Under the pieces are notes generated by a model, which ran no database searches, had not been told where the DNA came from, and saw only the letters and a program-made list of their open reading frames with translations. Below, in pieces: positions 36,108 to 59,610 of a stretch of 64,000 bases of DNA (its first letter is position 1; each line of letters opens with the position of its first letter). Source of the stretch: Schmidtea polychroa (lineage: Eukaryota). The position numbers and the translations under genes were made by a program. The stretch lies in assembly GCA_044892525.1 (NCBI GenBank), contig CM097885.1:23746001-23810000 (forward strand), written 5' to 3'.

Positions 36108-38037
36108 AAAAGTCGGCGGTTAATATTGTGGGGAAAAAGTATATCAAGAATACGATTTAAGATGAACGAAAGTTCGAGAATGTATAGTTAAACGTACTAC
36201 GTTTGTATTTTACTGTGGAAAGTGAAGCCACACTTCATTGATAAAGATGTATACAATCCCAAGACCTGTGGAAGTTATGCCAGAAAATTGTTTAGCAGCA
36301 TTTCAAACAGAAAAGTTGAAAATTAGCCCTGAAATTAAATTAAATGCAAAAATAAATCTTAGAACGAGAGAAACGGTAGCTATAAAAGGAATAATGAAAC
36401 AAAACGGAGATTATGAAAGGGAACTGTACAAAGTCAGTGGTAAAATTATTCAAAGTGCTGTGGTGATTGAGGAATATTTAACGGGATTGAGGTATATTTA
36501 ACGGGATTGAGGAATATTTAACGGAATTGAGAGAATTTGAAGGAGCTTTCCATGGTGATGCGGGGAAGTTACAGACCCATTCATTTTGTAATATGAAGCA
36601 AAATTGTTGTCAAATGGGAGAATCAATTCTTGTTTATGAGGTAAAAACCAATGTGTGTAACTTAGCGCATTCCAAAACTATGAATTTCAAAGAAATTAGT
36701 GGAGAGAAATTTAGAGAAAGAACAAATAGTATTAATATGAATTATGGAACAATTATAGTTCATGCTAATCGTTGAAAAAAGTGACAGCAATGGAGAATAA
36801 TAGATACCCCTTAAGATCGAAAAAGAATGACACTAAAGAAGGAAAAGTTCTCAAGATAAAAATTATTAAAAATCCCGAGCCATTGGGATACACCACCAAA
36901 GTTTTATTGATAACATTAATTATGCTAATAAATGTTTTGGAAACAAATGATTTTAATTAGAAATTATATCGGTTGAATATCGGTAATTAATTTTTCAATG
37001 GGATCTATTTGGTTAAATTGTATAGTAATATTTTTTTTAAATTTCGACTTTTAGAAAAGAATTTTTAATTATTCTTAATTATTTTTAATTTTAACTGGTT
37101 TTATCATTAGATTTTATAAATTGTTTAGAGTTATTGATCAAATTAATTTTTGATGATTTTAGTGAAATATTTGTAATAATAAGAATTAAGGGTAGAAATA
37201 TAGTCATTTAAAGAAATTTTAAGGAATCTTATTAGTATGAGGGAAATATATAACCTATTATGGCTATTTATCGATGAAAAAATTAATCTTTAAAGACAGA
37301 TATATTTCTGGGAAATTTGATGCTTTTTAGATGATTTTATTAGAGAATTTACTTGGATATAACAAATGGTAGAATATTGTCATTTTAAAGAATTTACTGG
37401 TTTATTAGATGTTATAAGTCTCTTTTGGAATTTAATGATAATTATTTTTAGTGTAAATTGACGACTTTGATAATTGTAATGAATTTATACTGAATTTTTT
37501 GAATATTTTGAGCAATCAGTCATTCACTTTAAGTATGCATGTATTACTTTTTAAAAAATAATTAAAATTTATATATTTCAATTAATTTATTCAATTAATT
37601 TATTCAATTTAAACCATTTATTTACTAGATCTTATTACAAAATTCTTATTAATTAATTATCTTAGTTGATTCATATTAACTTGAATGATCAGTATTTATG
37701 TATTTACTGGATTATTAAGGACTAGAATTTAAAGTTCTTTCTTGTCCATTAATTACATTTTTATGATATTTATTTAGTATGTTTTGAATAATTTAAATTT
37801 TTACAATTATTAATCAATTTTACATAGTTATTGGTGCCTTGAGTTCAATTAATTTTTCATCCAATTTTTTTTCAAGTGAAGAAGATTTTTTTTAAAAGAT
37901 TTATTTGTTAGTACATAGTTGCTGGTATTTGTTAGTAAGAACTTGGTTGTTAGTACTTAGTACTTGGTATCTTGTTCTTTGTACTTGGTATTTGGTTGTT
38001 TGCTTGTTGTTGTTAGCTAGTGAAGAAACATTGTTGG

Positions 38038-39276
38038 TATCCCAATTTTTCATTTCATTTAAACCATATTTAAGAATATGATGTAAATCATATCCACGTA
38101 TATTATGAAAAATTACAGGCATGATAAACCTAATTTGTCTTGAAATATTACATTTGGAACAAGAAGCCCCCAAATATTTACCCGTGTAATGATCATGATC
38201 TTTAACTGGGTTTCCTAATAGTTTATTGCACAAGTAACAAATGGTTGAAGAACGAAAGGATTTTTTCTGGTCAGAAGAAAGAAATTCCATTTTCTTTTTG
38301 GAATTATTTAAGAAGTAAGGTAAAACTATTTTTTCACCATTGTCATTTATTTCAGTCAAAAACTGTTCAATACAGTTTAAACCATAAAAACTCTTATATA
38401 TATTTTCGCCAGTAAAATTATTAATTAATAATATTCCGGCTGAAATCGGCAAGTGGAGTTAAAATATTTATCGTCCTTAGGTAAAACAGCCTGAAAATCA
38501 GCATATACAACAAACGGAGGAGTCACAATCTTAGACCAATCTTTAAATATCAAGTTCTTATCGGAAGGAAAACTATACAAAGTTGTACCTAGTTGGTTTT
38601 TCTTACATAATGCCTGATGTTTCTTAAAAGCTTCAGCCATTCGGAATTCATTCAAGCATCGTTCACATCAAATACTCTGAATTCTAACATTTGAAACAGT
38701 ATTACAATTCAAGAGCCTGTCAAGATTAATAACTGCTATGTAATGAAAAGAGTCACTTTCATTCCAACAAAATTAAATTAATGGGAATTCCACCTACAAC
38801 TTTAGACTTATGTATGACATCTACAAAAGGATGTTTCAAAACTTCCTTATCATAACATTTATTAAGTCAAATTCATCATACGAAAGAACATTAATCGCAA
38901 TATCCAGGATTTTAGCCTCAAAATTTGGGATATAACACAATTTCATTGGCAAATCAGAAGAATCAAAGACAAGATCTGATGGATTATAACTAGATGCTAT
39001 ATTTCTATCATGTCTACTAACCTCATCATATTTTATAATAGATAAAATACTATAGATGAAACACATCGTCAGTGTTTTTCACATTAACCGAACGATATTT
39101 TAAAGATAATTTTGGAGAAGTATCAATACCTCCGTGACCACTCAACCTACTTATTTGTGAATATTTTGTCAATTTAAAACTAATTTATTTAATTTTATTA
39201 ATTGACCAGTTGCTACCATTTTCACAGACTTGAGTTATTTTATCATTCAAAAGAGCAATACTGTCATCTAAAAAAG
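38038..39276 (-). pseudogene. polB: Middle fragment of an older Polinton polB
   Basis: CFIYSILSIIKY, PPFVVYADF, CYLCNK..DHDHYTG..CSKCN and FHNIRGYDLHHIL are colinear with the intact PolB. Many stops and frameshifts. Confidence 0.9.
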
Positions 39277-42200: not shown

Positions 42201-42723
42201 ATTGCCGGGATAGCCTATTGGAGGAAAGCAAATGCCAACGGCTCATGATCAAGGCCAAGTCAGAGGCCCTACATCAAATATACTCTGAATCCGAGTTAAA
42301 AAGGCGAGTCAAGGAGTTCCCAATAGCGGATAAGATGAATATTTTCCACATCCACTATCAAACGGATGAAATAACTTCATTAAAACCTTCTGGTTGTCAA
42401 GGCCATGGTCCCGACTTCCCGCCAATCGTCGCTTTTATCTTAGGCGGTGTACCACGTGCCAACGTTCCTCCGGAATCCACTCTTACTGAATCGTCACTCG
42501 TCGTATCTGTAGCACAATCAGATAGTCCAACAAAACTCAATTCCCGAAAAAGAAAACGTCCGACTCGTGCTGAGCGAACTCAACGACACCAAAGCAAAAT
42601 CACTGCACTAGAAGCCACGTTATTTGCGGCTCAGGAGGCTAACACAAAATCATCCAGTAGAAGTCTTATCGCACCACTCGCCACAGCTTCGTATCGAGTA
42701 ATCCCTTCGCAGCATCCGTGCTC

Positions 42724-43438
42724 AGTAGGGTATTGTGTGGACCCGGGAACAAAGACATATGACGTCATCGATGACGTCACAAAGACATATGANNNNNNNN
42801 NNNNNNNNNNNNNNNNNNNNNNNNNNNNNNNNNNNNNNNNNNNNNNNNNNNNNNNNNNNNNNNNNNNNNNNNNNNNNNNNNNNNNNNNNNNNNNNNNNNN
42901 NNNNNNNNNNNNNNNNNNNNNNNNNNNNNNNNNNNNNNNNNNNNNNNNNNNNNNNNNNNNNNNNNNNNNNNNNNNNNNNNNNNNNNNGTTGCGGTATTTT
43001 AAAATTTATATTACGTTGCGGTATTTTAAAATTTATATTACGTTGCGGTATTTTAAAATTTATATTACGTTGCGGTATTTTAAAATTTATATTACGTTGC
43101 GGTATTTTGAAATTTTAATTATTAAATATATTACGTTGCGGTATTTTGAAATTTTAATTATTAAATATATTACGTTGCGGTATTTTAAAAACTTATTTTG
43201 ATGGTTAAATAAAATAAAATTATTACACACAATACTCAGACAAAATATTCTGTTCCCCTATGGTCACACACACACAATGTATAAAAATATTATTTACACA
43301 CACGCAACAAGTTAGTGTTCTCATCGATATATTATTAATCTATATACTCCGAGTTTATCCGACAAAATATTCTGTCCCCCTATGGGTACTGCTAACAAGG
43401 GTACTGGTCGCGCTCAACAACTCGCAAGGGTATTATTA
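42724..43438 (+). repeat. Left terminal inverted repeat (about 700 bp or more, gapped), with a 27-bp tandem array at 42988-43190
   Basis: Reverse complement of 57810-58501 with a few indels. Repeat unit GTTGCGGTATTTTAAAATTTATATTAC. Confidence 0.92.
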
Positions 43439-43870
43439 NNNNNNNNNNNNNNNNNNNNNNNNNNNNNNNNNNNNNNNNNNNNNNNNNNNNNNNNNNNNNN
43501 NNNNNNNNNNNNNNNNNNNNNNNNNNNNNNNNNNNNNNNNNNNNNNNNNNNNNNNNNNNNNNNNNNNNNNNNNNNNNNNNNNNNNNNNNNNNNNNNNNNN
43601 NNNNNNNNNNNNNNNNNNNNNNNNNNNNNNNNNNNNGTAAATGTCACAAAGTTACTGTTAAAAAATATTCAAGACAAAACATTAACAAAGAAATTATACT
43701 TTAAATATACACTAAAATTTATTAACACACTGGGTAAAGGTGATAAAGGTAACTAACAAAACTTTAACATATTATTATTACACACAATGTATAAAAATTG
43801 TTCACAAAGTTACTGTTAAAAAATATTCAAGACAATATGACTAATACATTTATTAAATAATTTAAACACA

Positions 43871-46800
43871 TCATCGAAAATAATCATGTCCAAAATAATT
43901 ATCATCTGCTGGATCATGGAAATCATCTGTATCATCTGCTGAGATAGCTTCCGTTGAATCTATAAATATAACGGTGTCACCGCCCCTATAATGACCATAT
44001 GCCAAACTTTGATTTTTATCCACCCAATTTCGCTTATCATCTCTACATGTCAAGGCTCTTTTATTATTTTTAATACTAAAAAGTTGGTGATTTTTTGACG
44101 TTATTCTAAACTGAGGGACTGTGTATATTTTATCATTTAAATAACAATCTAGATACGACTGATGTGTTAGTCCAGTATCTTTCATACTTATCCCCTTAGC
44201 CTTCATACTTTCCTCATCACCCATCAAACTGTAACATTTAGGTCTCAAGAACACCCAATCTTTATATAATAACCCTTTATTCTCGTCTTTGAATTTACCA
44301 ATGACAGAATCAAGGTTCCTACTATATAAAGGATGATTTGGGTCATAATTCGAAGTATCTAATAATTGATCTCTAATCATCGCAGGTAAAAGAATGTCAA
44401 GACTACAATGTTTAATTTCCAAGAAGAAGGAATCTGTGTCTCCAGCAACGATATTAATTTCGCAGTTGAATTCGTCGCGATATTTTTGCAACTCTTCATA
44501 CTGCAGCTGGTACATCCTGAGTTTGGATAAATCAAGTACGGTTTGACCAATGTAACTAGGTCTATTCAAACATACTATGTCCTTCCTCAATAAAACCGAA
44601 ATCAAGTCATCATCGATTTTCGTGGATTTACGAAAAGTCGGTTTCGAACAGAATGTTAATAATCTCTGTGAAGAATTACACAGACGTAAATTAATACGTT
44701 TTTTAAGATTTTCAACAGTCTTGCCGTAAAGACTGTTGTTTAATAATTTATAAAAATTTTTATCGAGTTTATTTGTCGACGCTGCTCGTAACGCCGTATT
44801 TGTGTTAATATAATTTTTGAAAATTTTATCTTGTTTAAATTTAATTGCTCTATGTGTTTTTGATATTTTAACACCTAATTTAATAAATATTTGTAGAAGC
44901 CTCCAATGAAGAACGTAGTTCCTCTTGGGGCTGTGTGTAAGCAACAGCTTCTCTATTTTCGAACCCAGTACACACATCTTTTCAGCGGCAACGGGAAGAT
45001 CGTCCAGTTTGTCGTGAATTGACGTCGGTATTTCTAAATCCACTTCTATGGTATAACCATAATCAAGCAGATCTAAATCTACCGTTGTGCATTCAACAAT
45101 TATATTATTTAATAAATTATCATCAGTAACCCATTCAAAGTCACTGCAAGGTAATGGTTGACTTAAAGCCCAACCGTATAAATTATTTATATCTATGTAA
45201 AGCAAAGCGGTATCCGGGTCTGTTTTTACATAATGTTTATTTACAAAAGTTAGTCCGCCACGGATACCGCCCTCGAAAAAGTTATACATCTCCATATCGG
45301 TGAGGAGCTCAATTGGAGAGTTTAAAGTTAATAAGGCTGAATTCCAAGACATACCTGGAATCCCTAAGAAATTTAATGGCTCTAGTCGGTTATGAGCAAT
45401 GGACTTAGCTCTAAATTGCTGGAAAAAATCGGCTAAAAGGAAAACATCAAGTTTTAAATAAACCATCATGTAATCGAAAAGTGAAGTACATGAAGTTTCA
45501 ACCCAAATTCGCTGAGCTGTCTCATATTCAGCGGGAGTCACATCTTTCCAAATAGGAGGTAACTGATGAGTGTTATGCAAAACCTCTAATGAAGTTGCGG
45601 CATCATAAGGAAAAATTCCCTTTGCAGTTATTATTGTACCCTGAAATTCTGATTCGGTCAAGGGTAAAGATGATAAAGTTTTGACAGCATTATTTAAAGA
45701 CTCGCTGACAAATTGATAAGAGTCTATAAATTTAACAGTTAATGAGTCAATCCTAGCAAAAAGACTAAGGAATTTCTCGCTGGTTAAAGAAATACAACTA
45801 ATATTCCATGAATGATATTTTGAAAGGCCAAATTTCAAGATATGATGCAGATCATAACCCTTTAAATTATGAAATACTACAGGAAGGGTATGTCTAATTT
45901 GCCTCGACAGATTACAAGTTGTACAAGCGGCACCAAGATATAGACCGGTAAAATGATCATGGTCCCTAACTGGACTAACTAAAGGCTTATTGCACAAATA
46001 ACATGATGTGCTGTTTTCAAACATTAATTGTTGCTCATCTGTAATTATCATTTTCTTTTGATAATTTTTATAATAATAAGGAGTTACAATATATTTCCCT
46101 ATCATTTCAATTTCAGTAAGAAATTGATCGACACAATCTAAACCGGTGAACGACTTATAAATTTTTACGCCCGTGAAATTATTAATAAAAAGCATACCGG
46201 CAGAAATAGGCAGATGACGTTGAAAGTAGCGAGTGTCTTTAGGTAAGATAGCCTCAAAGTCAGCGTAAATAACAAAGGGAGGAGTAACTGTTTTACTCCA
46301 ATCAGTAAATTCTAAATATTTATTTTTAGGCAATGTGTACAAGGTAGTACCAAGCTGATTTTTATCGCAAAGACCCTTATGTCTATTAAAAGCGTCATCA
46401 TTCCTAAAACCGTTTAAACATCTAGGGCACCACTGACTACAAATCCTAACAGGAGTGATTGAACTATTCCTACAATTAAGAAATCTATTTAGGTCTGTGA
46501 TTCCAAGATAATGATAATTATCATTCTTTTCAATTAATAATAAATTGATAGGTATGGCTCCTACTATCTTACTCCTATATATTATATCAATAAAGGGATG
46601 TTTCATAACTGCATCTTCATCGGAAATGTCAATCAAAGCCCTTTCGTTATAAGTAAGAACATTAATACTATAACCCGGATTTTGTTGTTCAAATTTACTT
46701 ATATTTGATAGTTTCATCGGCATATCATTAGGATCAAATTTAATTTCAGAAAGATTGTAGGAATTAGGGCGATTTCTATATTGCCTATTTATACTATCAT

Positions 46801-47718
46801 ATTTAATAATTGACAAGAAACTATACAAAAAGCAGAAGTGGTCATTATTAACTACATTAACGAGACAGCTTAAGTTTCTTAAAGATTTTGGGGTTTCAAT
46901 AAAACTTCTACCACTTAACCGACTTATTTCAGCAAATTTAGTCAGAACAAAGCTTATGTATTCTATTTTATTGATAGTCCAATTACTACCTTTCTCATTA
47001 ATTTTAATTATTTTTTCATTTAAACGAGCAATACCTTCGTCAATGAATGTATCGCTCCAAACTCGGGCGGAATTCGAGATTACAAAAGATTGTAACTCAT
47101 CATCTTTTATAAATTCCACCTTTAGACAAAATTGAATTTTACATGATTTTAATTTATTTACATATAAATTTAATTTATTTATTAAAATGTCTGGTACAGA
47201 GACCGTTTTTAAATCTAAAGACGAAACGTCCATTTTTAATATAATATGATTATTATTTAAATCACTGGTGACATCTACGACACCATAACCTATTTGATTA
47301 TTATTATTATTATTACCATTATTATAATAAATATTACTACTACTATTATTATTATCAATTTCATCATCACTTATGTTGATTATTTCATCATCATCACTTA
47401 TGTTGATTATTTCAATAACTTTAGATTTTTTACTTGGTATTGAATTGATTTTTTCATTATTTTTTCTTTTATTCATATTAATTAGAATATTTATTTGATC
47501 ATTTAATTTATTTACTTGATCTTTTAGTTTAGTTATTTCGTTTATATCATTATTATTGGTGTTGTTAGTATTGTTGTTGGTGATATTATTATCATTATTG
47601 TTGATATTATTATTATTGTTGATATTATTATTGTTGTTGATATTATTAGTGTTGATATTATTATTAGTGTTGTTGATATTATTATTAGTGTTGTTGATAT
47701 TATTATTATTGTTGTTGA

Positions 47719-47749
<31 letters not shown>

Positions 47750-48425
47750 AAACGATTCATATAAGCTATAGAAAAGAGACTTCTTAGAAGGTTTAAATTG
47801 TTGGAGATGGAGTCTATGCTTATTATAAAATTCCTTATACGTTATAACTTCAATAACCTCACATTTAGGGCATAGGATGTAGGTGACACCGTTATATTTG
47901 TGACTATAATATCTTTCCATTATATCATCGCAGTCATTATGATATTGACTATTACAAAAGTTTTGGTATTTCAAACCTATGAAAATATTTTTATCATAAA
48001 ATGTTTAAAAAATAATAAGATAATAATCATTTTTAAAGTTTAAGATATTTTTCGTAAGATATTATTCAAAATTGACTTTTAAATAGTATCTTATAAGAAA
48101 TTATATATAATTTAATTCATTTTCATAAATAAATAATTCATTTTCTAAAATAGATTTTCATAAATAATATATAAAAGTTATTAATTATAATGTTCAAAAT
48201 CATCATCATATTTCATAAATCTTCTTTATAAAATCATCATAAATAAATAAATCTTCTTTTCATGAATAAATCTTTTCATAAATCTTCCTTTCAAAATTAT
48301 CATAAATCTTCTTTTCATGAATAAATCTTCTTTTCATAAATCTTCCTTTCAAAATAAGTAAATCTTCTTTTCATGAATAAATCTTCTTTTCATAAGTTTC
48401 TTCTTTTAATTATTATTATTATTAA

Positions 48426-48456
<31 letters not shown>

Positions 48457-48802
48457 ATTGTTTAAAAAAAAAAAAAAAAAAAAAACTTAAAAACTTATTA
48501 CAATAAATAAATACTTACATTTTCGTCCTTTCGAAAGAAATTTTCCAGCATCGGCACCATCAGAAGTATTTATTACATTTCCATCTAAAAGCATAATAAA
48601 AATAATAATGATAATAAGAGTAAACTATTACCATTTATTCTATTCATGTCTACATCTTGTCCGTCGATATTCATTTTAATTTGTTGATTAGTACCTAATA
48701 ATCATATTAAAAATAATAAAATAATAAAATAATAAATTTACCATTAATTCCTCCTACGATCTTTCCGTCAACTCTTTGAATATTGTTGTTGTTGTTGTTC
48801 AT
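43871..48802 (-). CDS. polB: Protein-primed family B DNA polymerase; predicted join(48742-48802, 48632-48694, 48519-48584, 43871-47976), 1431 aa
   Basis: Exo motifs YADFE, FHNLKGYD and YLKLDV. Pol motifs DINNLYG, KLLNNSLYGK and GDTDS. EndoVII-like Zn insert. The main exon is certain; the three upstream exons are predicted from phase-compatible GT-AG sites. Confidence 0.93.
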
Positions 48803-49232
48803 GTTGTTAAATATTGGTAATAGATTTTTAAAAGTGATGAAAAAATGAAAGTGTAGACTATATAAGAGAGATATTACAGGTTTTATTAACCGACCAATGA
48901 AAATAGAGATAGGATAGGAAAAGACACTACATGTTTGTTTATACAAACCATGATGAAATAATGACCTTTACATGTCTTTATTACTCAGTGCTTTGTTACT
49001 TTGCACTGTGCATGCACTGAACATGTAATAGTATTACATAATATTTTTAAACATAAAATTTAACAAATAATATATTAAACATAAAATAATAATATATTAA
49101 ACATAAAATAATAATATTTAACAAATAATAATAATATTTAACAAATAATAATAATAATATTTAACAAATAATAATAATATTTAACAAATAATTAAAATAG
49201 TCAACAAATAAAAATCATACAGTATACATTTA

Positions 49233-49644
49233 TTAACCATCAAATTTTTTATACAACAACCATGCCAAACAGTGTTGACCACATGTTTGAGTCAATGGAT
49301 TTTGAAACATAGTTTTATTATATACAATAGGTTTCCCAATTGTTTGAAGTTTTGATATCAACAAAGCAGGATAATAGAAACCCATAGGATCGAATACGAA
49401 TATATTACTAGGTTTCACATATATAGCTATCCAATGTTCTCCACCAAGATGAGACGAATGAGTATTGACGATTATGGCTTGATTATTGCTCAAATAAGGA
49501 ATTTTATCGAGAGGGAAAACACCTACAAATTCATTTCCTAATATTTGTTTTCCAATTCGATTAACCTGAACAGAACTACTTTAATAAAATTAAACAGTAT
49601 CAAAAAACTTACTCCATGACAACTTTTTGTGTTTCTGTATACAT
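49233..49644 (-). CDS. Adenain-like cysteine maturation protease, join(49613-49644, 49233-49575), 124 aa
   Basis: GVFPLD..VNT..GEHW..FD..Q..CG (His/Asp/Cys triad). A 37-nt GTAAGT..AG intron restores MYTETQKVVMDSVQVNRIG.., and its ATG directly follows the capsid stop (TAAATG). Confidence 0.9.
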
Positions 49645-50868
49645 TTATACTAGCACGGTTCTATTTGCAGTAATTTGAACTTCATTTTCAAATACTCCAT
49701 ATATTATAACATGTACCGGTTCAGTGATAGCTTTTGCAAACTTAATATCCAGTCGTAAATTCCCGTTTTGTGGTAGTTGACTCTGATTTAAATCAAAATC
49801 AGGGGCTAAAACAAATGTGAAAAATGGATATTTGCTTTTAAATTCTTCTAGAGTAATTCCACAATTCAAGTTTTTATCTAAGTAACCCAGATTTCTAACA
49901 ATACTCTGCATATATGTCGCACAGTAATTATCGCTTTCGAAATCTTGAGTATATGTTTCTCTATAATCAGTATTTTTCGACAAAGTCAATGAAGTAACAC
50001 CAAAATTTTTGAAAATTGAGCTGGAAGCAGTATAAGATCCATTATATTGCGTTTCACTTTGAAATGTTACCAGAATAAAATTAGGCATTCTTCTGTCACC
50101 AAATATTTGTTCTTTATAGAATGATGAAGCACCTTTAGCAATAGCAAATTGTACAATTTCCTTTGTTTTTAATGGATAAATTGCATGTTTTGAATTAAGA
50201 CCCAATTGATGACCAGCTAATACTGACGGGTCTACTCGAACTCTTCTCACCAATAATTTTGCATCAACTAATTGACATATTGGTGCACCAGTTGCACTAG
50301 TAAGAGTTAGTGCAGAATCGGACCTTTTCAATCTAATGTGTACATTAACTCCTGGTAGCAAATATTTCGGTTGATCCATAAAATCGAGTTGTAATGATGA
50401 GCACATAGTGAATGATTTTGAGCCTTTAACCCACTTTTTTCTTTCATCATCTGTTGCAGCATAACCCATAGGTGTAAGACAGGTATTTTTAGTATCAGAA
50501 TTGTAATTTAAAATAGTTTCTATCAAAGCCTTGTGAATGAATGTATTATTTCCGCCCTCAATCTTGATATTATTAAATCCCAACACTGCATCTTTAAATA
50601 GAGTATGAAACAGGAAATTGTTCGGTATTACATCTGCATTGGCATCCAAAACTTTTCTATCTTTATCTACAACCTTGATCTGGACAGTCAATAAAGTATC
50701 GTTCAAATCTAAATATTCAGTTTGCGAACCATTAATATAAAACTCGATATCATTTCTACTATCAGTAATTGAATTCATAGGAAAAACTTCCTCAAATGCC
50801 CCAAATTCTATTACAGCCTGGGGCGACGGTCTATCAAATATACATAATTCAGATTTACCACAAATCAT
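49645..50868 (-). CDS. Major capsid protein (double jelly-roll, hexon-like), 407 aa
   Basis: SELCIFD..IEFYING..YLDLNDTLL..NNFLFHTLF, typical of Maverick MCPs, in the expected position. ATGA overlap with the upstream gene. Confidence 0.9.
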   Translation of the reverse strand: MICGKSELCIFDRPSPQAVIEFGAFEEVFPMNSITDSRNDIEFYINGSQTEYLDLNDTLLTVQIKVVDKDRKVLDANADVIPNNFLFHTLFKDAVLGFNNIKIEGGNNTFIHKALIETILNYNSDTKNTCLTPMGYAATDDERKKWVKGSKSFTMCSSLQLDFMDQPKYLLPGVNVHIRLKRSDSALTLTSATGAPICQLVDAKLLVRRVRVDPSVLAGHQLGLNSKHAIYPLKTKEIVQFAIAKGASSFYKEQIFGDRRMPNFILVTFQSETQYNGSYTASSSIFKNFGVTSLTLSKNTDYRETYTQDFESDNYCATYMQSIVRNLGYLDKNLNCGITLEEFKSKYPFFTFVLAPDFDLNQSQLPQNGNLRLDIKFAKAITEPVHVIIYGVFENEVQITANRTVLV

Positions 50869-51227
50869 TTTGCAAATATAGTTCCATGTCCTTTCATTCG
50901 TTTGTTTATACGTGATATTCCATGTCTTTTACGTTTTGGAGCTGGGGCTGGAGGCGTATCTTTTTGAAACATACCTGCAACCCCTGGTAAAACTTTCCCT
51001 AATTCAGCTAAAGCATTTGTTTTTAGGGATGGTAATATTTTCTGTTCATTCATAATAACGTCTTTTGCAGTTTTCATACCAAAACTACCAATACGTTTAA
51101 GAATAGGCAATGCAAATCTACCAATTGTTCTCAACCATCCCGATCCGTACTGTTTACCAATAAAATATGGTAATTCGCCACCAGATTGGCTATCACTATA
51201 CATACTAATAATATCAGAATTTGCCAT
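50865..51227 (-). CDS. Small basic core-like virion protein, 120 aa
   Basis: Q-x-G-x-G motif (QYGSGW) followed by the amphipathic LRTIGRFALPILKRIG and a basic tail. Lies between the penton and hexon genes. Confidence 0.7.
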   Translation of the reverse strand: MANSDIISMYSDSQSGGELPYFIGKQYGSGWLRTIGRFALPILKRIGSFGMKTAKDVIMNEQKILPSLKTNALAELGKVLPGVAGMFQKDTPPAPAPKRKRHGISRINKRMKGHGTIFAK

Positions 51228-52287
51228 CTACTTTACGAAAATGTAGTGTCAAATGAGTTTTTGAGTCTTTTGGAAAGTTTATAAGTTTTCCACTATCGTC
51301 ACAAATATTTATTTCTATATTGTTTATACATGAGCTTGAAATTGGTAAATACATGGGATTATCTATATTTATATTGACAACTTCATCATGTTCATATTTT
51401 CCAATCCATACCGATTTCAAAAGAGGAACACTGGAATCACCAACAATTATGGGTTCGATAATGTTAGTATATATGAACATTTGTTGATGATGTTCTAGTA
51501 TTCTTGGTTTGCGTATACCAGTCGATTTTTCTCGATATTTTTGCCTATCTAATCCAAGTGAATTTGCCAAATTTTTATCAAATGTAACTTCGCAAATGTC
51601 ATCATTCAAACTGAAGGTAAACATCAAATCTTTCACAATTTCCAAATTTTTAAATATGTGTGAACAATTGAACTTTAAATATTTAAGTAAATCATCAAGT
51701 TTATCAAAATATAATTCATCAGCAAAGGTAAATGATTCTTCAACTTCATCATTATACGACACAGATATTTTGATTTCTTCTTTCATTACACTGTTTGCTT
51801 CAAATAGATTAAAACGTAATAAATACTCGGTCTCCGTAACAATATATTTCAACTTATTGCAACCCATTCGTTTGGCATCTTCAATAGTTTCGAATGTTAT
51901 TGTAAACGGTTTAAAATCACAACTGATATTTAATCCATCCTTGTAAAACATATAGCAATGCGAATCTAATATTTGATTCGGAATATGATATGTTTTATCA
52001 TAATTACTAATAACAAAGATACCGCTACATGTTTTCACAATATTCCTTCTGAAATCAATCTTACAATGACTATAAAATGGGAATGTGTTGTACACAAATG
52101 TAAAATCTTGCAGTGCAACTTCCCAGTCCCCATTTAAAGAAATCGGATTCTGGAGATTGACCATAGATTTACTGGCTTGATTGTCTGGATGAATTAATGG
52201 GCAACTATTGCTTGGTAAAATAGTATAAAAATTCACTTTACTAGATCCTTTTCTGATATCCATGATGGGTTTTGATAACCATGCCAT
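51214..52287 (-). CDS. Minor capsid protein (penton-like), up to 357 aa
   Basis: FYTILPSNS..N..S..V.LQNPI.L.GDWEVAL and MFIYTNII..VGDS.VPLL..YLPI..IEINI.D. Confidence 0.87.
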   Translation of the reverse strand: MAWLSKPIMDIRKGSSKVNFYTILPSNSCPLIHPDNQASKSMVNLQNPISLNGDWEVALQDFTFVYNTFPFYSHCKIDFRRNIVKTCSGIFVISNYDKTYHIPNQILDSHCYMFYKDGLNISCDFKPFTITFETIEDAKRMGCNKLKYIVTETEYLLRFNLFEANSVMKEEIKISVSYNDEVEESFTFADELYFDKLDDLLKYLKFNCSHIFKNLEIVKDLMFTFSLNDDICEVTFDKNLANSLGLDRQKYREKSTGIRKPRILEHHQQMFIYTNIIEPIIVGDSSVPLLKSVWIGKYEHDEVVNINIDNPMYLPISSSCINNIEINICDDSGKLINFPKDSKTHLTLHFRKVDGKF

Positions 52288-53352
52288 TTGACATAGTATT
52301 GTTTATCCTTGCCGACCTTTTTAGTTTTCAATATCTTTTGAATTCTAAATACTTTTGGAGGAGGAATAACTTGTAATTCTTGCTCATAAAATTTTCCTTG
52401 TACAATATTGTTATCATAATCACTGATGACATACATTACAGGATTCTGACTAGTATTTATTTTTGAAATTACAAAGACTTCATCACTCCAATTTGTATCG
52501 AAATTTTTAATAAATGGTGATGCACTAATTTTACTAATTCTAACATGGTCACCGACTTTATATTTAGGTTTTGCAATTTTTACAGATTTCTTAGAAGTCA
52601 ATGTTTTTGATGTAATATCAACCGGTCTTAATCCATTAAGTCCTCGATGTGATGAATGATTATAACTTGTTATTATTTTCGGTAAAGCATTTACCCATTT
52701 TTTATTACCTTGATGCACGAATAATTTCTTTAATCTATCTCTCAATGTTCTGTTAAATCTTTCAACATGAGCAGCTTTGTATTGAGAATGTACCGAGTAA
52801 TGGTTTATTTTCAATTTATTGAGGATTTGCTTGACTTTACTNNNNNNNNNNNNNNNNNNNNNNNNNNNNNNNNNNNNNNNNNNNNNNNNNNNNNNNNNNN
52901 NNNNNNNNNNNNNNNNNNNNNNNNNNNNNNNNNNNNNNNNNNNNNNNNNNNNNNNNNNNNNNNNNNNNNNNNNNNNNNNNNNTATTAGGATGTCCATCTT
53001 TAAATAAAATATTAATTGCCTTGGACATTTCATCTGAAGATTTTGCCTTGACGGGTATTGCTCGGGCAAACCGACTGAATACATCAATACATGTTAAAAT
53101 ATATTTATTCCCATTGTTAATTTTCGAATAAGGTATCATCTCCATCAAATCCATTTGCCATAAATCATTTATTCCATATGTTTTATATACTCTTGTTGGG
53201 AATCGTTTCTGCATTGGTTTGTTCAAACTGTACGCAAGCTGGTCTGATAACCACTTCTGGGTTTCCTTTTTCGAATTCGGAACTCTTTTGTTTAATTTTG
53301 CCACTCCACCGAAACCGGCTTCGTCTTCGGGGTTCGTCCAAATCTTCTCCAT
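52233..53352 (-). CDS. int: Retroviral-like DDE integrase with C-terminal chromodomain (spans the N-gap 52842-52982)
   Basis: WQMDL..YILTCIDVFSR..HVERFNRTLR..YNHS.H and YYVKWHGY..SWI. The frame change across the gap is a gap-size artefact. Confidence 0.92.
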
Positions 53353-53413
53353 TACAACAAGAAGATTTAATATTAAATTTAATGTCTGGTAATGAAGGAT
53401 TAGCACCCATTGT

Positions 53414-53908
53414 TTATGATCGACTTCCTATTATTCCACCTAATAATGATATTGCTAAAGGTATCAATGCACCGATAAATCCCCCTTGTTGTTTATATAT
53501 AATTTTTCTCATTTGTTGACGATTTTTATTATTTACTAATGATAGCAAAGGTTTCCTATGTTTACTCAATAATTGCTTTTTAGATTTACTGATTTTAATC
53601 TTGCCTTTGACTACTTTAAGTATAATATCGAGTAAATCATCGACAACATAATTTGGAAAAGATTGTAAAATACTGTTTCTTTTCATACTGGGTGCTTTTA
53701 ACAATGTATTGAAAAACGGGAAACTCCGATGATTTTTAACAACTTTTACTTTCTTAGTGGTTTTACTTTTAGGTTTAGGTTTAGGATTTTTCGAAATAAG
53801 ATTCATTGCAGGAAAATTTTCTGTAATAAGTTCTTTAGATGGAGTATAACTAGTTGTTGGTGGAACTTTTGGTTGTTTTTTACTCGATATCCTTGTTTTT
53901 GAAAACAT
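53414..53908 (-). CDS. Lys-rich protein with adenovirus pX-like C-terminus, 164 aa
   Basis: Ends KQQGGFIGALIPLAISLLGGII, resembling pX (RGGILPLLIPLIAAAIG) with an xGG cleavage-type site. Confidence 0.7.
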   Translation of the reverse strand: MFSKTRISSKKQPKVPPTTSYTPSKELITENFPAMNLISKNPKPKPKSKTTKKVKVVKNHRSFPFFNTLLKAPSMKRNSILQSFPNYVVDDLLDIILKVVKGKIKISKSKKQLLSKHRKPLLSLVNNKNRQQMRKIIYKQQGGFIGALIPLAISLLGGIIGSRS

Positions 53909-53921
53909 GATTTATATGTTT

Positions 53922-54560
53922 TCAATTTTGTTTTGAACTTTGTTTATAAACCATGGCACCTTTTGGGTTGAAAATATCTGTTTTTACCCGTATATCATCA
54001 GGACATTGTTGTGTGAAATCGAGAAATATATACCCATGAGGTATTTTCGTAGCATCTTGAAATGCATTGATAAGAAAATTACGGTTATTAGGGTATGCTT
54101 GTCGTCCAAGAAAATCAATGACAGTTGCATCTCTAGGATTCTTGAAAATAACTAGATATTGTACATTTAAATTACGTGTTCGATGTGCCCCACCTTGATG
54201 AAATAAATTTTGTGTTATGAAAATAACTGTTACACCAACATGTCTGCTGATTTTTGTGAATAAATTATTAAAATCCTTTTCTTTATTGGCTTCTTGATAC
54301 AAATCATCGATAATGATTACATCATCTTTCTTCAAACGACTTGACCAGTTTTTATCAAAACCCTTTACTATTTTCATGTTTTTCAATTGACAGAAACTTG
54401 ATTGTGTCAATCCATGTTCTTCATCGGCGCCCCTATGCCAATAAATATTGTTGAATTTTGTTTTGAACAAATTTGATTTTAGTAATTTACAAACAAATAA
54501 TGTTTTTCCGCTACCACTTGGACCAACGATTTGGTATACTGCATCATTTCGTAATTCCAT
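53922..54560 (-). CDS. A32/FtsK-like genome-packaging ATPase, 212 aa
   Basis: Walker A GPSGSGKT, Walker B IIIDD, SRH arginine finger and ITQNLF. Confidence 0.93.
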   Translation of the reverse strand: MELRNDAVYQIVGPSGSGKTLFVCKLLKSNLFKTKFNNIYWHRGADEEHGLTQSSFCQLKNMKIVKGFDKNWSSRLKKDDVIIIDDLYQEANKEKDFNNLFTKISRHVGVTVIFITQNLFHQGGAHRTRNLNVQYLVIFKNPRDATVIDFLGRQAYPNNRNFLINAFQDATKIPHGYIFLDFTQQCPDDIRVKTDIFNPKGAMVYKQSSKQN

Positions 54561-54572
54561 TTTTTAAATTTA

Positions 54573-54639
54573 AACTATATATAATTATTGTTTATATTGA
54601 TAATTTAAATGAACTCCTTTTTAAAATAACTATATATAA
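54573..54639. promoter_or_regulatory. Divergent promoter with two AACTATATATAA boxes
   Basis: Identical 12-mers at 54573-54584 and 54628-54639 in the 107-bp gap between the head-to-head ATPase and TBP-like genes. Confidence 0.55.
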
Positions 54640-54667
54640 CAGAGTTTTTTATAATTATTTCATTAAA

Positions 54668-55132
54668 ATGCTTTCAAATATAAATTACAGGGCAAAAGCT
54701 GATGTATCAAAAATGGTATTTCCAATGGGGAAACCACAACAACTCATCAATAGAAGTAAAAAATATCCAATAATATATTTCAAAACTGGTAAATGTAGAA
54801 TTATGGGGTGTAAGGAAATAATCAAAGCTAGTGAATATAATGTTTATGATTTAGAAATACAATCGATAACCATAACTTCCGATATAGGTTTTTCTTGTAA
54901 TTTAAATAAATTGGCTAAATTAATACCATGCTTTTACGAACCAGAATTATTTCCAGCTTTGAGATATATAAAATATAACCCTATGTGTGTAAATATATTC
55001 GCTAGCGGTAAGATAGTAATTCTTGGAATAAAAAATATTGATTACAAATGTATAGTTGATAATATCATATCTGAAATTAAATCAATAATTGAAGGAAATG
55101 AATTTTTAGATTTTTTATTATCACTTAATTAA
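54668..55132 (+). CDS. Divergent TATA-binding protein (TBP) homologue, 154 aa
   Basis: Repeat 2 FYEPELFPALRY..NPMCVNIFASGKIVILGIK resembles canonical SYEPELFPGLIY..KPKIVLLIFVSGKIVLTGAK. Repeat 1 IYFKTGKCRIMGCK resembles LIFASGKMVVTGAK. Confidence 0.85.
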   Translation: MLSNINYRAKADVSKMVFPMGKPQQLINRSKKYPIIYFKTGKCRIMGCKEIIKASEYNVYDLEIQSITITSDIGFSCNLNKLAKLIPCFYEPELFPALRYIKYNPMCVNIFASGKIVILGIKNIDYKCIVDNIISEIKSIIEGNEFLDFLLSLN

Positions 55133-55253
55133 TTATTTATCATTACAAATTCAATGCAATTGAAATGCATGATTCTGATTGGTCGAAATCTAATTGGCTG
55201 ATGATTATTTATAACAAAATGTTTTCGGTTTAGTTGTCATTTATTCAACAAAA

Positions 55254-55661
55254 ATGTACAACATACAAAGTTCCGCAATCACCTCAATGAAAGAGCATGC
55301 AAATTATGGTAATTTCAAATTTTTATTATTACATTAATATATATATTTTACAGATGAATATCAATCAATTATCCTGCAAAGATTATGCTTCTATTATCCA
55401 GAATTAAATGAAATTCTACAAGATAGAGATAAAGCTATCATTCCGGATTTGGTATACAACCAAACACGAATCTGGATATTTGATATAATAAACACCTTTC
55501 TATGGGATATCAAGATAGGAAGGGGGATGAAAGAAATGAAACCAGAGGCTCCTTGCATTTTCGGATGTAGCTGTTGCAATTTCCGTTATCAACAATATGT
55601 TGAATGGTGTTTGGTGAAGACTCTGAGAAATCACCACTCGAGTCAGATTGTATCAAAATAA
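55254..55661 (+). CDS. Unknown Cys-rich protein, join(55254-55308, 55354-55661), 120 aa
   Basis: A 45-nt GT..TTTTACAG intron contains an in-frame stop. Spliced product MYNIQ..ANYDEYQS..PCIFGCSCCNF. Confidence 0.75.
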
Positions 55662-55793
55662 ATTTTTATGTTGAATTGTTTTGTTTTTGTAAATCGAAAT
55701 AATAGAAATAATAATAATAATAGTAATAGAAATAGTAATAATAATATAAGTAATAATAGTAATAAAAAACAATATTTATAATAAAAACATTAA

Positions 55794-56411
55794 TGCAACA
55801 TTAATGCAAATGACATGCAATTTAAACAAAGACATACAGCAATCTGATTGGTTGATAAACAATAGTCATAGGTATAAAAACCCTGTACCATTTCATTTTA
55901 ATCATAATTCACGATGACAAAGAAAATTTCAAGCACTGAAAAGCCAAAAGTTGTTCCAGAACTTGTAAAACCTGTTCAAATGTTCCACAACTATAAAATG
56001 TATTTTTTAAAAGAAGAAATCAATATGAAATTGGCGTCGCCGATCAAGCTAATTCCAACTAAATTTCAATTCTTATCCGGCACGCTTTCAATGATAGATA
56101 TTAAATCTATTGATGAGGTTTTCAAACGGTTGAATACGAATCTATCTTGTAATCAACATGCCTGGTTCAACAACAGATATGCAAGATTTTATGATTCCTT
56201 TGATGAAATCGGTTTCAAAGAAAACGAAAATTGGTATATAACAATTGCAATCCAAGGATATAAAGTAGATAATAATGATGTGTATTCTCCAATTTGGAAA
56301 ATTATGTCTGCTAGACTTTCACAACTATTTTAATGTTATATTTAATAAATGTATTAGTCATATTTGTTTTTTCTCTTTATTAATTGCAACATTAATGCAA
56401 ATGACATGCAA
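55794..56411 (+). promoter_or_regulatory. Duplicated 27-bp promoter module containing the octamer ATGCAAAT
   Basis: TGCAACATTAATGCAAATGACATGCAA is identical at 55794-55820 and 56385-56411, each upstream of a gene. Confidence 0.7.
55914..56333 (+). CDS. Unknown 139-aa protein (possible OB-fold ssDNA-binding protein)
   Basis: Clean ATG ORF with its own GATTGG+TATAAA promoter and AATAAA. The fold guess is weak. Confidence 0.65.
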   Translation: MTKKISSTEKPKVVPELVKPVQMFHNYKMYFLKEEINMKLASPIKLIPTKFQFLSGTLSMIDIKSIDEVFKRLNTNLSCNQHAWFNNRYARFYDSFDEIGFKENENWYITIAIQGYKVDNNDVYSPIWKIMSARLSQLF

Positions 56412-56460
56412 ATTTAACAAAGAAAATCTATAAACAAACTTATAATATAGTTTTAAAGTG

Positions 56461-56786
56461 ATGAAAATGACTGCAGAAAAAGGTTAACATGATTAATTAA
56501 ATACTGAATTATTTATTATTTAGAATTATTAATCAACTTTTTGTTGGAAAAATTAGCAGAAATATCTGGTGTAAAAATTGAGGATATATTATCTGTTACA
56601 AATGCATTAAATATCGGCTGGGTAGTTGAGAGTCAAGATTCAAGATTTGAAGAAACCGATACTCAAGAAATTGATGACGAAATCTATGAACCTAAAGATA
56701 ATATTACGAATGATTGTATTGATCATGTCGTTGAAAATATAATGAAATGTGGAGATGACGATTGCGAATGTGTTAATAAATTTTAA
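56461..56786 (+). CDS. Unknown acidic protein, join(56461-56482, 56524-56786), 94 aa
   Basis: A 41-nt GT..TTATTTAG intron supplies an ATG in frame: MKMTAEKELLINF..EETDTQEIDDE..KCGDDDCEC. Confidence 0.7.
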
Positions 56787-56830
56787 AATTGAATTATTTT
56801 CATTTAAATATACTATTAAAAACAATAACA

Positions 56831-57359
56831 TTAATTTTTATTCATATATCTACAGAAAATATACATTATAACAACTCCAGTTGTAAGTTTTATAAAGTTT
56901 TTCATTTTTCTTTTGATTTCATCAGTTTCTTTAAAATTGCAGGCCAGTTTATTTAATACACCCCATCCGCCATTGGCTTCTATCCATGGGGTAAACTTGG
57001 ACTTGATTATCTAGAAATGAATATTATTAAAATATAGATTATAAAAGAAATCTTACTTCTAAAGACCACTGATAATAATGTTCTGAGTCATGTTGACCTT
57101 TTGCAATGATTATCTTCATGTAGGTGAATCCTACAATTATCCTTGTCCATTTCATGTCTTCATCGAAAAGACACTGAAATATTCTATTGAAGTAATACTT
57201 CTTGGTTTCCAGGGATTCCATCTCCATCATCTGCTGATAATCGATATGTTCACCTTCAATGATTTGTTCGGTTCGATTGATCAGGAAATTGAGGCTGTCG
57301 ACTATATTCGCGGTGACAATTCCGTTTAGAACATTTTCCATAAAATTTGGTTGCGACAT
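56831..57359 (-). CDS. Bcl-2-family protein, join(57057-57359, 56831-57010), 160 aa
   Basis: BH1-like LFDEDMKWTRIIVGF. A 46-nt GTAAGA..TTCTAG intron brings in BH2 WIEANGGW and the hydrophobic tail LTTGVVIMYIFC followed by RYMNKN. Confidence 0.85.
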
Positions 57360-57809
57360 TTCTAAATTAATTTAAAATATAATGTTTTATTTATACTAAT
57401 ACCATATGATTTTGATTGGTTGATAGACTATAAATGTAAAAGAAAGGTTTTGATTTGATACACCATAAAAACTGTATTGCTAATTATTATTATAACGAGT
57501 GTGTGCTAACACAATACTATAAATTTTATAATATTCGACTATGTTTTTTGTTAACTNNNNNNNNNNNNNNNNNNNNNNNNNNNNNNNNNNNNNNNNNNNN
57601 NNNNNNNNNNNNNNNNNNNNNNNNNNNNNNNNNNNNNNNNNNNNNNNNNNNNNNNNNNNNNNNNNNNNNNNNNNNNNNNNNNNNNNNNNNNNNNNNNNNN
57701 NNNNNNNNNNNNNNNNNNNNNNNNNNNNNNNNNNNNNNNNNNNNNNNNNNNNNNNNNNNNNNNNNNNNNNNNNNNNNNNNNNNNNNNNNNNNNNNNNNNN
57801 NNNNNNNNN

Positions 57810-58501
57810 TAATAATACCCTTGCGAGTTGTTGAGCGCGACCAGTACCCTTGTTAGCAGTATCCCATAGGGGGGACAAAATATTTTGTCGGATAAACTCG
57901 GAGTATATAGATTAATAATATATCGATGAGAACACTAACTTGTTGCGTGTGTGGACATTAATAATATTTTTATACATTGTGTGTGTGACCATAGGGGAAC
58001 AGAATATTTTGTCTGAGTATTGTGTGTAATAATTTTATTTTATTTAACCATCAAAATAAGTTTTTAAAATACCGCAACGTAATATATTTAATAATTAAAA
58101 TTTCAAAATACCGCAACGTAATATATTTTTAAAATACCGCAACGTAATATAAATTTTAAAATACCGCAACGTAATATAAATTTTAAAATACCGCAACGTA
58201 ATATAAATTTTAAAATACCGCAACGTAATATAAATTTTAAAATACCGCAACGTAATATAAATTTTAAAATACCGCAACNNNNNNNNNNNNNNNNNNNNNN
58301 NNNNNNNNNNNNNNNNNNNNNNNNNNNNNNNNNNNNNNNNNNNNNNNNNNNNNNNNNNNNNNNNNNNNNNNNNNNNNNNNNNNNNNNNNNNNNNNNNNNN
58401 NNNNNNNNNNCCGGGGGGTGGGGGGTATGACGTCATATGTCTTTGTGACGTCATCGATGACGTCATATGTCTTTGTTCCCGGGTCCACACAATACCCTAC
58501 T
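57810..58501 (-). repeat. Right terminal inverted repeat (gapped)
   Basis: Mirrors the left TIR, with a 27-bp array at ~58069-58278, a G-tract at 58411-58425 and TGACGTCA sites. Confidence 0.92.
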
Positions 58502-59078
58502 GTGCTCCAATATGATCCGCATCTATAGACAGATATTGATGCGATGATAAAAGAAGGAGAGTTGATGTGAAAAGATCCGATTCCGTACCTCGAGAGATGA
58601 ACTATCGTTCCAGCCAAAACGTATCGGTCATTGTTTAGTATAGACACTGTACAAGACTTTATATGATCTATCGGTGTTAATTCTTGTCGTATGCAATAGA
58701 ATTCGTTGAAAAGGGCCTCGTGTTCTCACATTTTCATACGAAATTATGTAGAAAGGTGTTATTTTCTAAATCCGTCATTATGTCGAAAAACCAAGAATTC
58801 TGAAGTCGTCTCACTGAACCAGAGACAGACCGTGGTTAGAAAGACGAGTAGCGTAGATGTAAGTCCTTCTATCGATATTCAGGAACCCGTACAGCAAATA
58901 TTGTGAATAGTAGTCATAATGCAGGGGCTAACCTGTTCGGAAGTTCCAACCCGAGTGTGCAGCACCAACATGACATATCATCATGGGCACACATGAGGGA
59001 GATCATTGTCAAGTCATGACGGACATTTACTGAATTCGACAGTGAATAAATAACATTCCCCTAAGTCACCAGCAAAAG

Positions 59079-59610
59079 TATCTATCACTCATGGGTTTCG
59101 CCGAATTAGATATTATAAAAGACTGAAATTGTCCATCTTTTCAAATTCTACATCTATGCAGAATTGAATTTTAACATATCCCATTTCGGATATAACAGAA
59201 TTTAATTTAGTTATAAATGGTGCAGGGATAATTAATTTTTTTAAATTTAAAGAAACTATTTCAACAATTATAACCACCATATTGAACAATATTTTCGTCA
59301 TTTGATGAATAAACATCTTCATCATCGGAAATTACGAATAGTTTCGATGGTTGTGGACAAACAGTAACCATTCGTCTTTTATTTAGACTAATAAATGCAA
59401 AAAGATTCTTCTTTGTACAAGAAAATTGATTTAAATGTGCACAGTGTTGACTATAAAAGTCAGAAAAAGTTATATTTTGGAAGCTCTTACAAATGGGACA
59501 TATAAAGAAGGTGACTCGTTTATTCACATGTCGATAGTATTTTTTCATTATTTTATGGCAATTGCGGTCATCATGGACTTTACATTGACAATAATTCGGG
59601 TAAAGATTAC
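59079..59610 (-). pseudogene. polB: N-terminal fragment of the older Polinton polB
   Basis: YPNYC..HDD..C..IMKKYY..CPIC..H..HL.QF and KIQFC..EF..QSFIISNSA align to the intact PolB N-terminus. Confidence 0.8.

Follow-up and report, generated by a model that had tools for sequence, protein, structure and literature searches.

Analysis of a 64,000-nucleotide stretch of DNA (the window) revealed a whole Polinton/Maverick copy of 15,778 bp that carries a gene for a protein resembling the TATA-binding protein (TBP). The element has AGT...ACT termini at 42724 and 58501 and inverted arms at 42720-43636 and 57612-58505, and it is flanked by a 6-bp target duplication, GTGCTC, at 42718-42723 and 58502-58507. 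The original prediction had placed the TBP-like open reading frame (ORF) inside a Polinton. This placement was confirmed by the terminal inverted repeats, the 6-bp duplication, and the pPolB and A32-like ATPase genes (Pfam); the integrase was recognized by motifs only. The element contains the following features.

42724..58501, no strand: whole Polinton/Maverick copy (terminal inverted repeats and target-site duplication)
43871..47920, minus strand: pPolB gene (Pfam DNA_pol_B_2, E 5e-29)
49200..49644, minus strand: cysteine protease-like gene, broken in this copy (gene order, motifs)
49645..52287, minus strand: putative genes for a major capsid (407 aa), a core (120 aa), and a minor capsid (357 aa) protein
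52233..53352, minus strand: retroviral-type integrase with chromodomain, partly masked (motifs)
53922..54560, minus strand: A32-like packaging ATPase (Pfam Pox_A32, E 2e-7)
54668..55132, plus strand: TBP-like gene, 154 aa (Pfam, PDB sequences, AF2, Foldseek)
55914..56333, plus strand: 139-aa beta-rich gene, adjoining the TBP gene in 20/81 loci
57011..57359, minus strand: Bcl-2-like gene (Pfam Bcl-2, E 8e-4, below the cut-off)

The putative capsid and core genes (49645..52287) gave no Pfam match, and we take them to be such genes from their size and order. The putative major capsid protein (MCP) matched PF21738-type capsids weakly (20% identity, E 0.08). The gene at 49200..49644 is presumably a protease, judged from Polinton gene order and its motifs; protease homologues come after the MCP gene in 11/81 loci. 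The gene at 52233..53352, which gave no family match and spans a masked stretch in this copy, is taken to be an integrase from its motifs. The 139-aa protein is confidently modeled as folded (pLDDT 87.9) and gave no family match in Pfam, PDB-sequence, or Atlas searches. Presumably it resembles the OB-fold single-stranded DNA (ssDNA)-binding proteins, and it is possibly one of them. No 139-aa neighbor was detected beside the TBP genes of the deeper relatives. At locus L095, a gene placed like the 139-aa gene had a weak match to T7 SSB (E 0.048).

A small gene before the polymerase gene (48500-48950, minus strand) looks spliced, with short GT-AG introns and an ATG at 48803, and has a TATA box and, further upstream, an ATAAAC box. 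The element lies between polymerase fragments that belong to other Polinton families (37901-38290 and 59261-59548 [-]), and it interrupts a repeat related to the ORFs at 940 and 28613.

Contigs from 4 of 14 listed runs, none of which is recorded as RNA, were inspected; such contigs give no starts, strand, or level. A contig of run X1 covers 54770-55114, which is not a sign of TBP gene expression. In the Bcl-2-like gene, the apparent stop lies inside a 46-nt GTAAG...TAG intron (57011-57056); contigs from two runs of one study, X1 and X3, skip this intron. Contigs of X3 revealed a poly(A) end behind the 139-aa gene. The spliced intron and the poly(A) end, which do not address start sites or the TBP level, hint that this Polinton family is transcribed. 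Planarian Polintons are repressed by piRNAs and de-repressed in piRNA-pathway knockdowns, according to the accessible part of PMC8532177.

The TBP-like protein, its copies, and its relatives

Searching Pfam with the 154-aa protein revealed a PF00352 match (E 5.2e-15; 55.5 bits, where the cut-off is 22.9) restricted to residues 62-125, the second repeat. The PDB sequence matches were TBPs in 35/35 cases. The AF2 model, generated from a 70-sequence alignment, had a mean pLDDT of 96.2 and a pTM of 0.85, and all Foldseek PDB matches listed for it at an E of ≤0.001 were TBPs (44 counted), the best with E 3.3e-9, prob 1.00, and TMq 0.69. The two-lobed saddle fold is present (Foldseek prob 1.00, TMq 0.6-0.7 to TBPs). 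The C-lobe is complete and contains the TFIIB stirrup residues E91 and E93. In the reduced N-lobe (repeat 1), the strands are present, helix H1 is absent, and H2 has 4 residues in the AF2 model; deeper-branching relatives have kept both N-lobe helices, and the short N-lobe marks a subclade.

The Pfam, PDB sequence, and AF2/Foldseek results bear out the prediction of a TBP-like 154-aa ORF. The claim of two repeats stands for the second, a complete lobe, and has to be qualified for the first, a reduced lobe in which helices H1 and H2 are lost or cut. Comparison with the host TBP and its paralogues agreed with the predicted retention of both Phe residues in repeat 2 (F95 and F111) and the predicted change of the second Asn to Ser (S66). 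Repeat 1, as had also been read, keeps the second Phe only (F38), the first being replaced by K22. The 154-aa protein is a member of the TBP fold family and not a canonical TBP. A 210-aa reading from the in-frame ATG at 54500 was ruled out: this ATG is not conserved as the start, and in most copies the open frame is 163 codons long.

The genome, probably that of a planarian-like animal, is AT-rich with short introns and measures 781 Mb, with four large contigs. It holds at least 150 TBP copies of 97-100% protein identity (150 scored of 4,133 first-look candidates). The coding core is identical in the best 30 copies, and most copies match over 3.4 kb at >99%. This near-identity points to a recent burst. 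At least three further families in the genome (four families in all) have the TBP gene head-to-head with the ATPase gene; compared with this family, their TBPs are 55-58% and their ATPases 83-94% identical. The head-to-head layout that had been predicted is thus valid for the families of this genome, with the ATPase as the partner (107 nt between the ATGs), and not for the metagenome loci, where the TBP gene is mostly co-directional and located before the ATPase or after the protease gene.

The homologue search yielded 84 proteins among 118 candidates, mostly of 145-170 aa, and a profile search for the TBP family yielded 68 clusters at an E of ≤1e-30. Among 81 loci (80 metagenome, 1 IMG/VR), a Polinton core gene was found in 39, and in 20/25 of those of at least 4 kb. 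The single TBP relative in IMG/VR lies on an unrelated large-virus contig, and no ATPase or capsid relatives were found in IMG/VR, which therefore supplied no control. The original prediction regarded TBP as a nonstandard Polinton gene; it is instead standard in a broad Polinton clade and not rare.

Selection was analyzed with NG86 on a set of 70 coding cores that differ from one another; they form 2,415 pairs, which are not independent. The median dN/dS was 0.28 (maximum, 0.51) for 78 metagenome pairs with a dS of 0.15-1.5 and 0.26 for 123 inter-family pairs of this genome. Judged from these coding sequences, the Polinton TBP clade is under purifying selection, with an estimated dN/dS of about 0.27. 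A quick TBP tree was generated with 49 rows, after 30 rows, among them partial and very divergent ones, had been dropped. In this tree, a single branch (SH-aLRT of 100) sets the 32 family rows apart as a long-branched clade. The top PDB matches are archaeal, and the quick tree gives the clade no fixed place among cellular and large-virus TBPs, so that a host, archaeal-like, or giant-virus source of the gene may each apply.

The host genome contains several divergent TBP paralogues (L113-L121). It also contains an intronless 300-aa TFIIB paralogue in multiple copies (13 matches; L233 and L234), located at G000 C3:38.2-39.1 Mb and C1:23.85-24.19 Mb, with some copies <50 kb from the window.

The ATAAAC box and elements without this TBP family

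Inspection of the regions before the genes of this copy revealed the following sites.

54631..54639, plus strand: TATATATAA canonical TATA-like box, 37 nt before the TBP ATG (sequence)
54660-54664: TCATT initiator-like word, downstream of the TATATATAA box
54589..54596, minus strand: TATAAACA box, 35 nt before the ATPase ATG, candidate site of the viral TBP
53942..53947, minus strand: ATAAAC 39 nt before the 164-aa gene, within the ATPase coding end
53491..53496, minus strand: ATAAAC 86 nt before the 75-aa ORF
53412..53417, minus strand: ATAAAC 65 nt before the integrase ATG
52301..52306, minus strand: ATAAAC within codons of the integrase chromodomain, preceding the putative minor capsid gene
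51277..51327, minus strand: two ATAAAC, preceding the 120-aa putative core gene by 55 and 100 nt
50904..50909, minus strand: ATAAAC 41 nt before the putative MCP gene

In the 5.3-kb cluster of this copy, ATAAAC[AG] has seven occurrences, all of them on the coding strand and none on the opposite one. The box is absent before the protease gene in this copy, and one ATAAAC is present in each terminal repeat.

The motif was first seen before the ATPase gene, at almost all loci, and then tested in windows from -110 to -11, with starts de-duplicated at 75% identity. Of 98 virion-module starts, taken from 37 loci, 84 had ATAAAC on the sense strand (21/23 in this genome and 63/75 in metagenomes), where dinucleotide shuffling predicts 8.9; on the antisense strand it was found at 6/98. 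It ranked first of all hexamers de novo, with the flanks Y-ATAAAC-R, and its one-letter variants ATAAAT, ATAAAA, and ATAAAG occurred at 16, 14, and 6 of the 98 starts. The box precedes ATPase (26/29), MCP (13/13), core (7/7), minor capsid (8/9), and integrase (12/17) genes, the 164-aa gene (9/12), the 75-aa ORF (6/6), and protease genes (3/5). The median distance at ATPase starts is 36 nt. The ATPase starts that lack the box are those of locus L110 and of two genomic copies that carry one-letter changes.

ATAAAC was found before 84/98 virion-module genes compared to 8/73 of all other genes, where the early and late classes are assigned from gene type. It precedes the TBP gene in 4/57 cases, the 139-aa gene in 4/10, one polymerase gene (L077), and several accessory genes. 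A canonical TATA box precedes 31/57 TBP genes compared to 17/98 virion-module starts. From these counts we infer that the TATATATAA box at 54631..54639 is the early promoter of the TBP gene, probably read by host TBP. The TATA boxes within 54573-54639 had been proposed as targets of the viral TBP for EMSA; this choice appears misplaced, because the TATATATAA boxes look like ordinary host-TBP boxes, and the candidate cognate site is instead TATAAACA at 54589-54596 on the minus strand. At L084:3994-4395 and in its deeper-branching relatives, a parvovirus-type phospholipase A2 gene lies beside the TBP gene and is preceded by ATAAAC, as expected of a virion entry protein.

The integrase chromodomain contains a D/H/N/Y-K-Q tripeptide whose codons are always nAT AAA CAr (11/11 loci, near-copies included), and in 3 loci of other lineages the chromodomain codons are free. 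Since the residue varies while the box letters are fixed, the constraint acts at the nucleotide level. The idea that amino acid conservation gave rise to the motif incidentally was ruled out by this codon constraint and the strand counts.

Elements without this TBP family served as controls. The second Polinton group of the same genome (PF21738-type capsid) has ATAAAC at 2/35 starts, and no TBP of its own was found in six 20-kb regions, where one strong TBP match belongs to an adjacent first-group element and a weak one (E 3e-4) lies outside any identified element ORF. In many genes of this group (L172-L203), the ATG immediately follows an A/T-rich run with ...ATAAAA or ...TTAAA at its end, a pattern suggesting that the group may use another expression strategy. 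Related elements without this TBP family have ATAAAC at 0/27 starts, a total made up of the 0/19 and 0/8 given below. Five contigs, all in prokaryote bins, were found by the ATPase alone. One of them (L212) has both the TBP gene and the ATAAAC box; in the other four (L213, L214, L215, and L221), which are incomplete and GC-richer, no TBP was detected and the box was found at 0/19 starts. L216/L237 has ATAAAC at 0/8 virion-module starts. L216/L220/L223 was ruled out as a TBP-free control because Pfam finds a different TBP on the contig. TATAAG or TATAAA occurs at similar places in L213, L214, L215, and L221 (ahead of the gene that follows the ATPase, after the integrase, and ahead of the core gene), and TATAA occurs in 9/27 control windows. 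The controls are limited in number; most are contigs that are incomplete and GC-richer (51-59%), and the control group from the same genome is a distant one. A single branch of the capsid tree (96/93) separates the elements with this TBP family from the others (15 versus 3 rows), so the co-occurrence of motif and TBP may be a single historical event.

DNA contacts and a possible late switch

Residues were counted in 225 family proteins, with gaps left out of the denominators. The yeast DNA-contact list used for numbering is that in Table 1 of PMC12529657, a source available in part. In yeast numbering, the kept contacts are N69 (169/179), F116 (196/196), F190 (221/223), P191 (194/223), and F207 (216/221). 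Changed and near-fixed are V122R (196/198), T124M (214/216), N159S/T (219/221), V161T/S (218/221), L205N (219/222), V71N (146/179), and I194R (179/221), and F99 is lost. By protein position, R44 is present in 196/198, N109 in 219/222, F38 in 196/196, and F95 in 221/223 proteins. Compared with the four Phe and two Asn residues of canonical TBP, three Phe and one Asn are found here. The TFIIB-stirrup glutamates, at C.L3.2 and C.L3.4, are well conserved (E91, 204/221; E93, 217/223); we take them to correspond to yeast positions 186/188, and the number of position 194 is likewise presumed. The canonical N-lobe helices H1/H2, which form the surface for TFIIA, TAF1, Mot1, and Brf1, are absent or have 4 residues. 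Structures of TBP on DNA show the N-lobe reading the box's 3' half, and it is in this half that the ATAAAC motif departs from TATAAAAG. Locus L110 encodes a divergent TBP without R44, and its ATPase gene lacks ATAAAC; in its close relative L111, the second Asn (N159) is kept. These two loci hint that protein and box may co-vary.

The accessible text of PMC7221094 describes two stirrup glutamates that contact TFIIB and that vary in giant-virus TBPs, which have their own TFIIB. A TFIIB search gave no match at an E of ≤1 in 87 loci of the TBP family, many of them partial, and no RNA polymerase gene was detected in the elements of this family. The 22.9-kb Polinton-like contig L237 (G004:C86) has adjacent genes for a TBP (L235:1495-2061, minus strand; Pfam, 2e-11) and a TFIIB (L235:797-1552, minus strand; Pfam, 4e-6, plus a zinc ribbon). 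A TFIIB profile built without the L237 sequence recovered this TFIIB at 2.5e-13. The L237 TBP stirrup lacks the glutamates, and its TFIIB lacks the Arg of the host protein. The two proteins are apparently an orthogonal pair that would represent a second acquisition of TBP in Polintons. The contrast between L237, with its own TFIIB and no glutamates, and this family supports the use of host TFIIB.

We assign a probability of roughly 0.7 to the reading that the Polinton TBP is a late switch, one that binds to YATAAACR, docks host TFIIB, and so initiates Pol II transcription of the virion module; "late" is a class that we infer for these genes from gene type. Expression of the TBP gene would come first, with host TBP acting at an ordinary TATA promoter. 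The altered DNA face (V71N, F99 lost, V122R, T124M, N159S/T, V161T, I194R, and L205N) would prefer C at position 7 of the box and tolerate C or G at position 1. The conserved stirrup glutamates would then dock host TFIIB, and Pol II would start about 25-30 nt downstream of the box, which would result in very short leaders. In this subclade, loss of the N-lobe helices would remove the surfaces for TFIIA, TAF1, Mot1, and Brf1 and free the protein from host control. The late-promoter role suggested by the original prediction is strengthened by the strand-specific ATAAAC, the kept glutamates, and the lack of a detected TFIIB of its own, and it remains a predicted role. Its second suggestion, a dominant-negative host shut-off factor, received no specific support.

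The box might instead be read by a host factor (host TBP, a paralogue, or a forkhead protein), with the viral TBP acting otherwise, e.g., by titrating TFIIB and so damping transcription of the host. This arrangement is unlikely, even though at least four divergent paralogues accompany TBP in the host and the stirrup glutamates fit sequestration of TFIIB as well as its recruitment. Canonical host TBP can reportedly bind TATAAAC through a Hoogsteen pair, and RYAAAYA, the forkhead site, speaks for the same arrangement. A decoy, however, needs no near-invariant novel DNA-face residues (R44, N109, S/T66, and M46), same-host Polintons without the gene are also without the box (2/35), and the box lies at TATA distance on a single strand.

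It is considerably less probable that the viral TBP binds the box and represses, either silencing virion genes in latency or acting as a dominant negative on host promoters. With one intercalating Phe and the N-lobe helices lost, DNA bending or the TFIIA/TFIID contacts may be defective, as repression would allow; yet the TFIIB glutamates, which are needed for activation, are among the best conserved residues, and the boxes occupy the core-promoter position at virion-module starts, most of which have no other TATA (17/98). That the protein acts outside transcription (at the termini, in replication, or in packaging, perhaps with the 139-aa protein) and that the motif is unrelated is very improbable: the 139-aa gene adjoins in 20/81 loci and each terminal repeat contains ATAAAC, but such a role would leave the TFIIB stirrup without a use, the motif follows gene starts rather than termini, and deeper relatives have no detected 139-aa neighbor.

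Beyond this genome, we lean slightly toward a broader version of the late-switch reading, in which a broad clade of animal Polintons would use the smallest known viral late-transcription system, one TBP of about 150 aa whose re-programmed specificity lets it read YATAAACR and which works with host TFIIB and Pol II, and other lineages would independently use other TBPs, one of them with a TFIIB of its own. If the late switch is real, it would join the vTBP complexes of herpesviruses and the TBP-TFIIB pairs of giant viruses as a third viral solution to late transcription, the elements would be autonomous nuclear viruses with an early-to-late program, and protein and box would form a natural orthogonal TBP-promoter pair. 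Because the TBP DNA face is otherwise nearly frozen, an altered-specificity TBP that keeps its TFIIB contact is of interest to transcription biologists. Virions of vertebrate Mavericks have not been seen, as stated in the accessible part of PMC8097293. For the expression of Polinton capsid genes and for viral autonomy, a dedicated TBP with a matching box offers a concrete, cheap test, and the ATAAAC box could serve as a sequence marker of late genes in the annotation of thousands of elements. With some thousands of candidate copies (4,133 at first look), TBP expression could affect host promoters.

Comparison with known systems

The element resembles Polintons, Mavericks, and adintoviruses, as far as these are described in the accessible parts of PMC8097293 and PMC8502044, in its pPolB, integrase, ATPase, protease-like, and putative capsid genes, its terminal repeats, and its 6-bp duplication. 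Bcl2 homologues have been reported in adintoviruses in the material available to us. The eight core genes listed for vertebrate Mavericks in the available text of PMC8097293 do not include TBP. A "TBP" label appears, without discussion, in a figure legend on MELD viruses in the accessible text of PMC8502044 and its preprint (10.1101/697771), and the term has 0 matches in the supplement text of PMC8502044; the maps of that paper may show this very gene. A search of the full-text literature, with subscription journals, Repbase annotations, and preprint supplements outside its scope, found no description of the TBP family or the motif. The available portions of 10.64898/2026.06.19.733378 and 10.64898/2026.10.13.758929 contain no mention of TATA.

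Like the cellular TBP family (eukaryotic TBP/TRF and archaeal TBP), the Polinton protein has the saddle, a complete C-lobe, and both stirrup glutamates, and it keeps N69, F116, L189, F190, P191, F207, and V213 (yeast numbering). Unlike cellular TBP, it has lost the first intercalating Phe, carries V71N, V122R, T124M, N159S, V161T, I194R, L205N, and T215L, lacks the N-lobe helices in this subclade, and belongs to a long-branched clade of its own.

Predicted viral TBPs were compared at the sequence level. Nucleocytoviricota, a double-jelly-roll virus lineage, likewise have a TBP homologue. According to the accessible text of PMC7221094, which covers viral TBPs of large DNA viruses and contains the word "polinton" 0 times, they mostly have their own TFIIB and their glutamates vary, whereas here the glutamates are kept and no TFIIB was found. 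The L237 Polinton follows the giant-virus TBP-TFIIB pattern.

The herpesvirus vTBPs (KSHV [Kaposi's sarcoma-associated herpesvirus] ORF24, Epstein-Barr virus [EBV] BcRF1, and human cytomegalovirus [HCMV] UL87) work with a TATT late box, as described in the accessible text of PMC12529657. KSHV ORF24 reads TATT boxes with a polar-rich face (PMC12529657, Table 1), which is changed at some of the positions that are altered here, namely, V122, T124, V161, and L205. Both systems would combine a TBP mimic with a polar-rich DNA face, a nuclear DNA virus, and host Pol II, features that are predicted here from sequence, and both have a one-letter-variant TATA before virion genes and ordinary early promoters (classes inferred from gene type in the present case). 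ORF24 is a 752-aa multidomain protein that is part of a six-protein complex, lacks acidic TFIIB contacts, and binds Pol II directly, with an N-terminal domain for this binding (PMC12529657, accessible text). In contrast, the Polinton protein consists of no more than a 154-aa saddle, in which the acidic TFIIB contacts are retained, and the gene list of the 15.8-kb element has no room for the genes of a six-member complex. No sign of common descent with the herpesvirus vTBPs was found. Though not a member of the herpesvirus vTBP family, the Polinton TBP most likely works in the manner of a herpesvirus late-promoter TBP.
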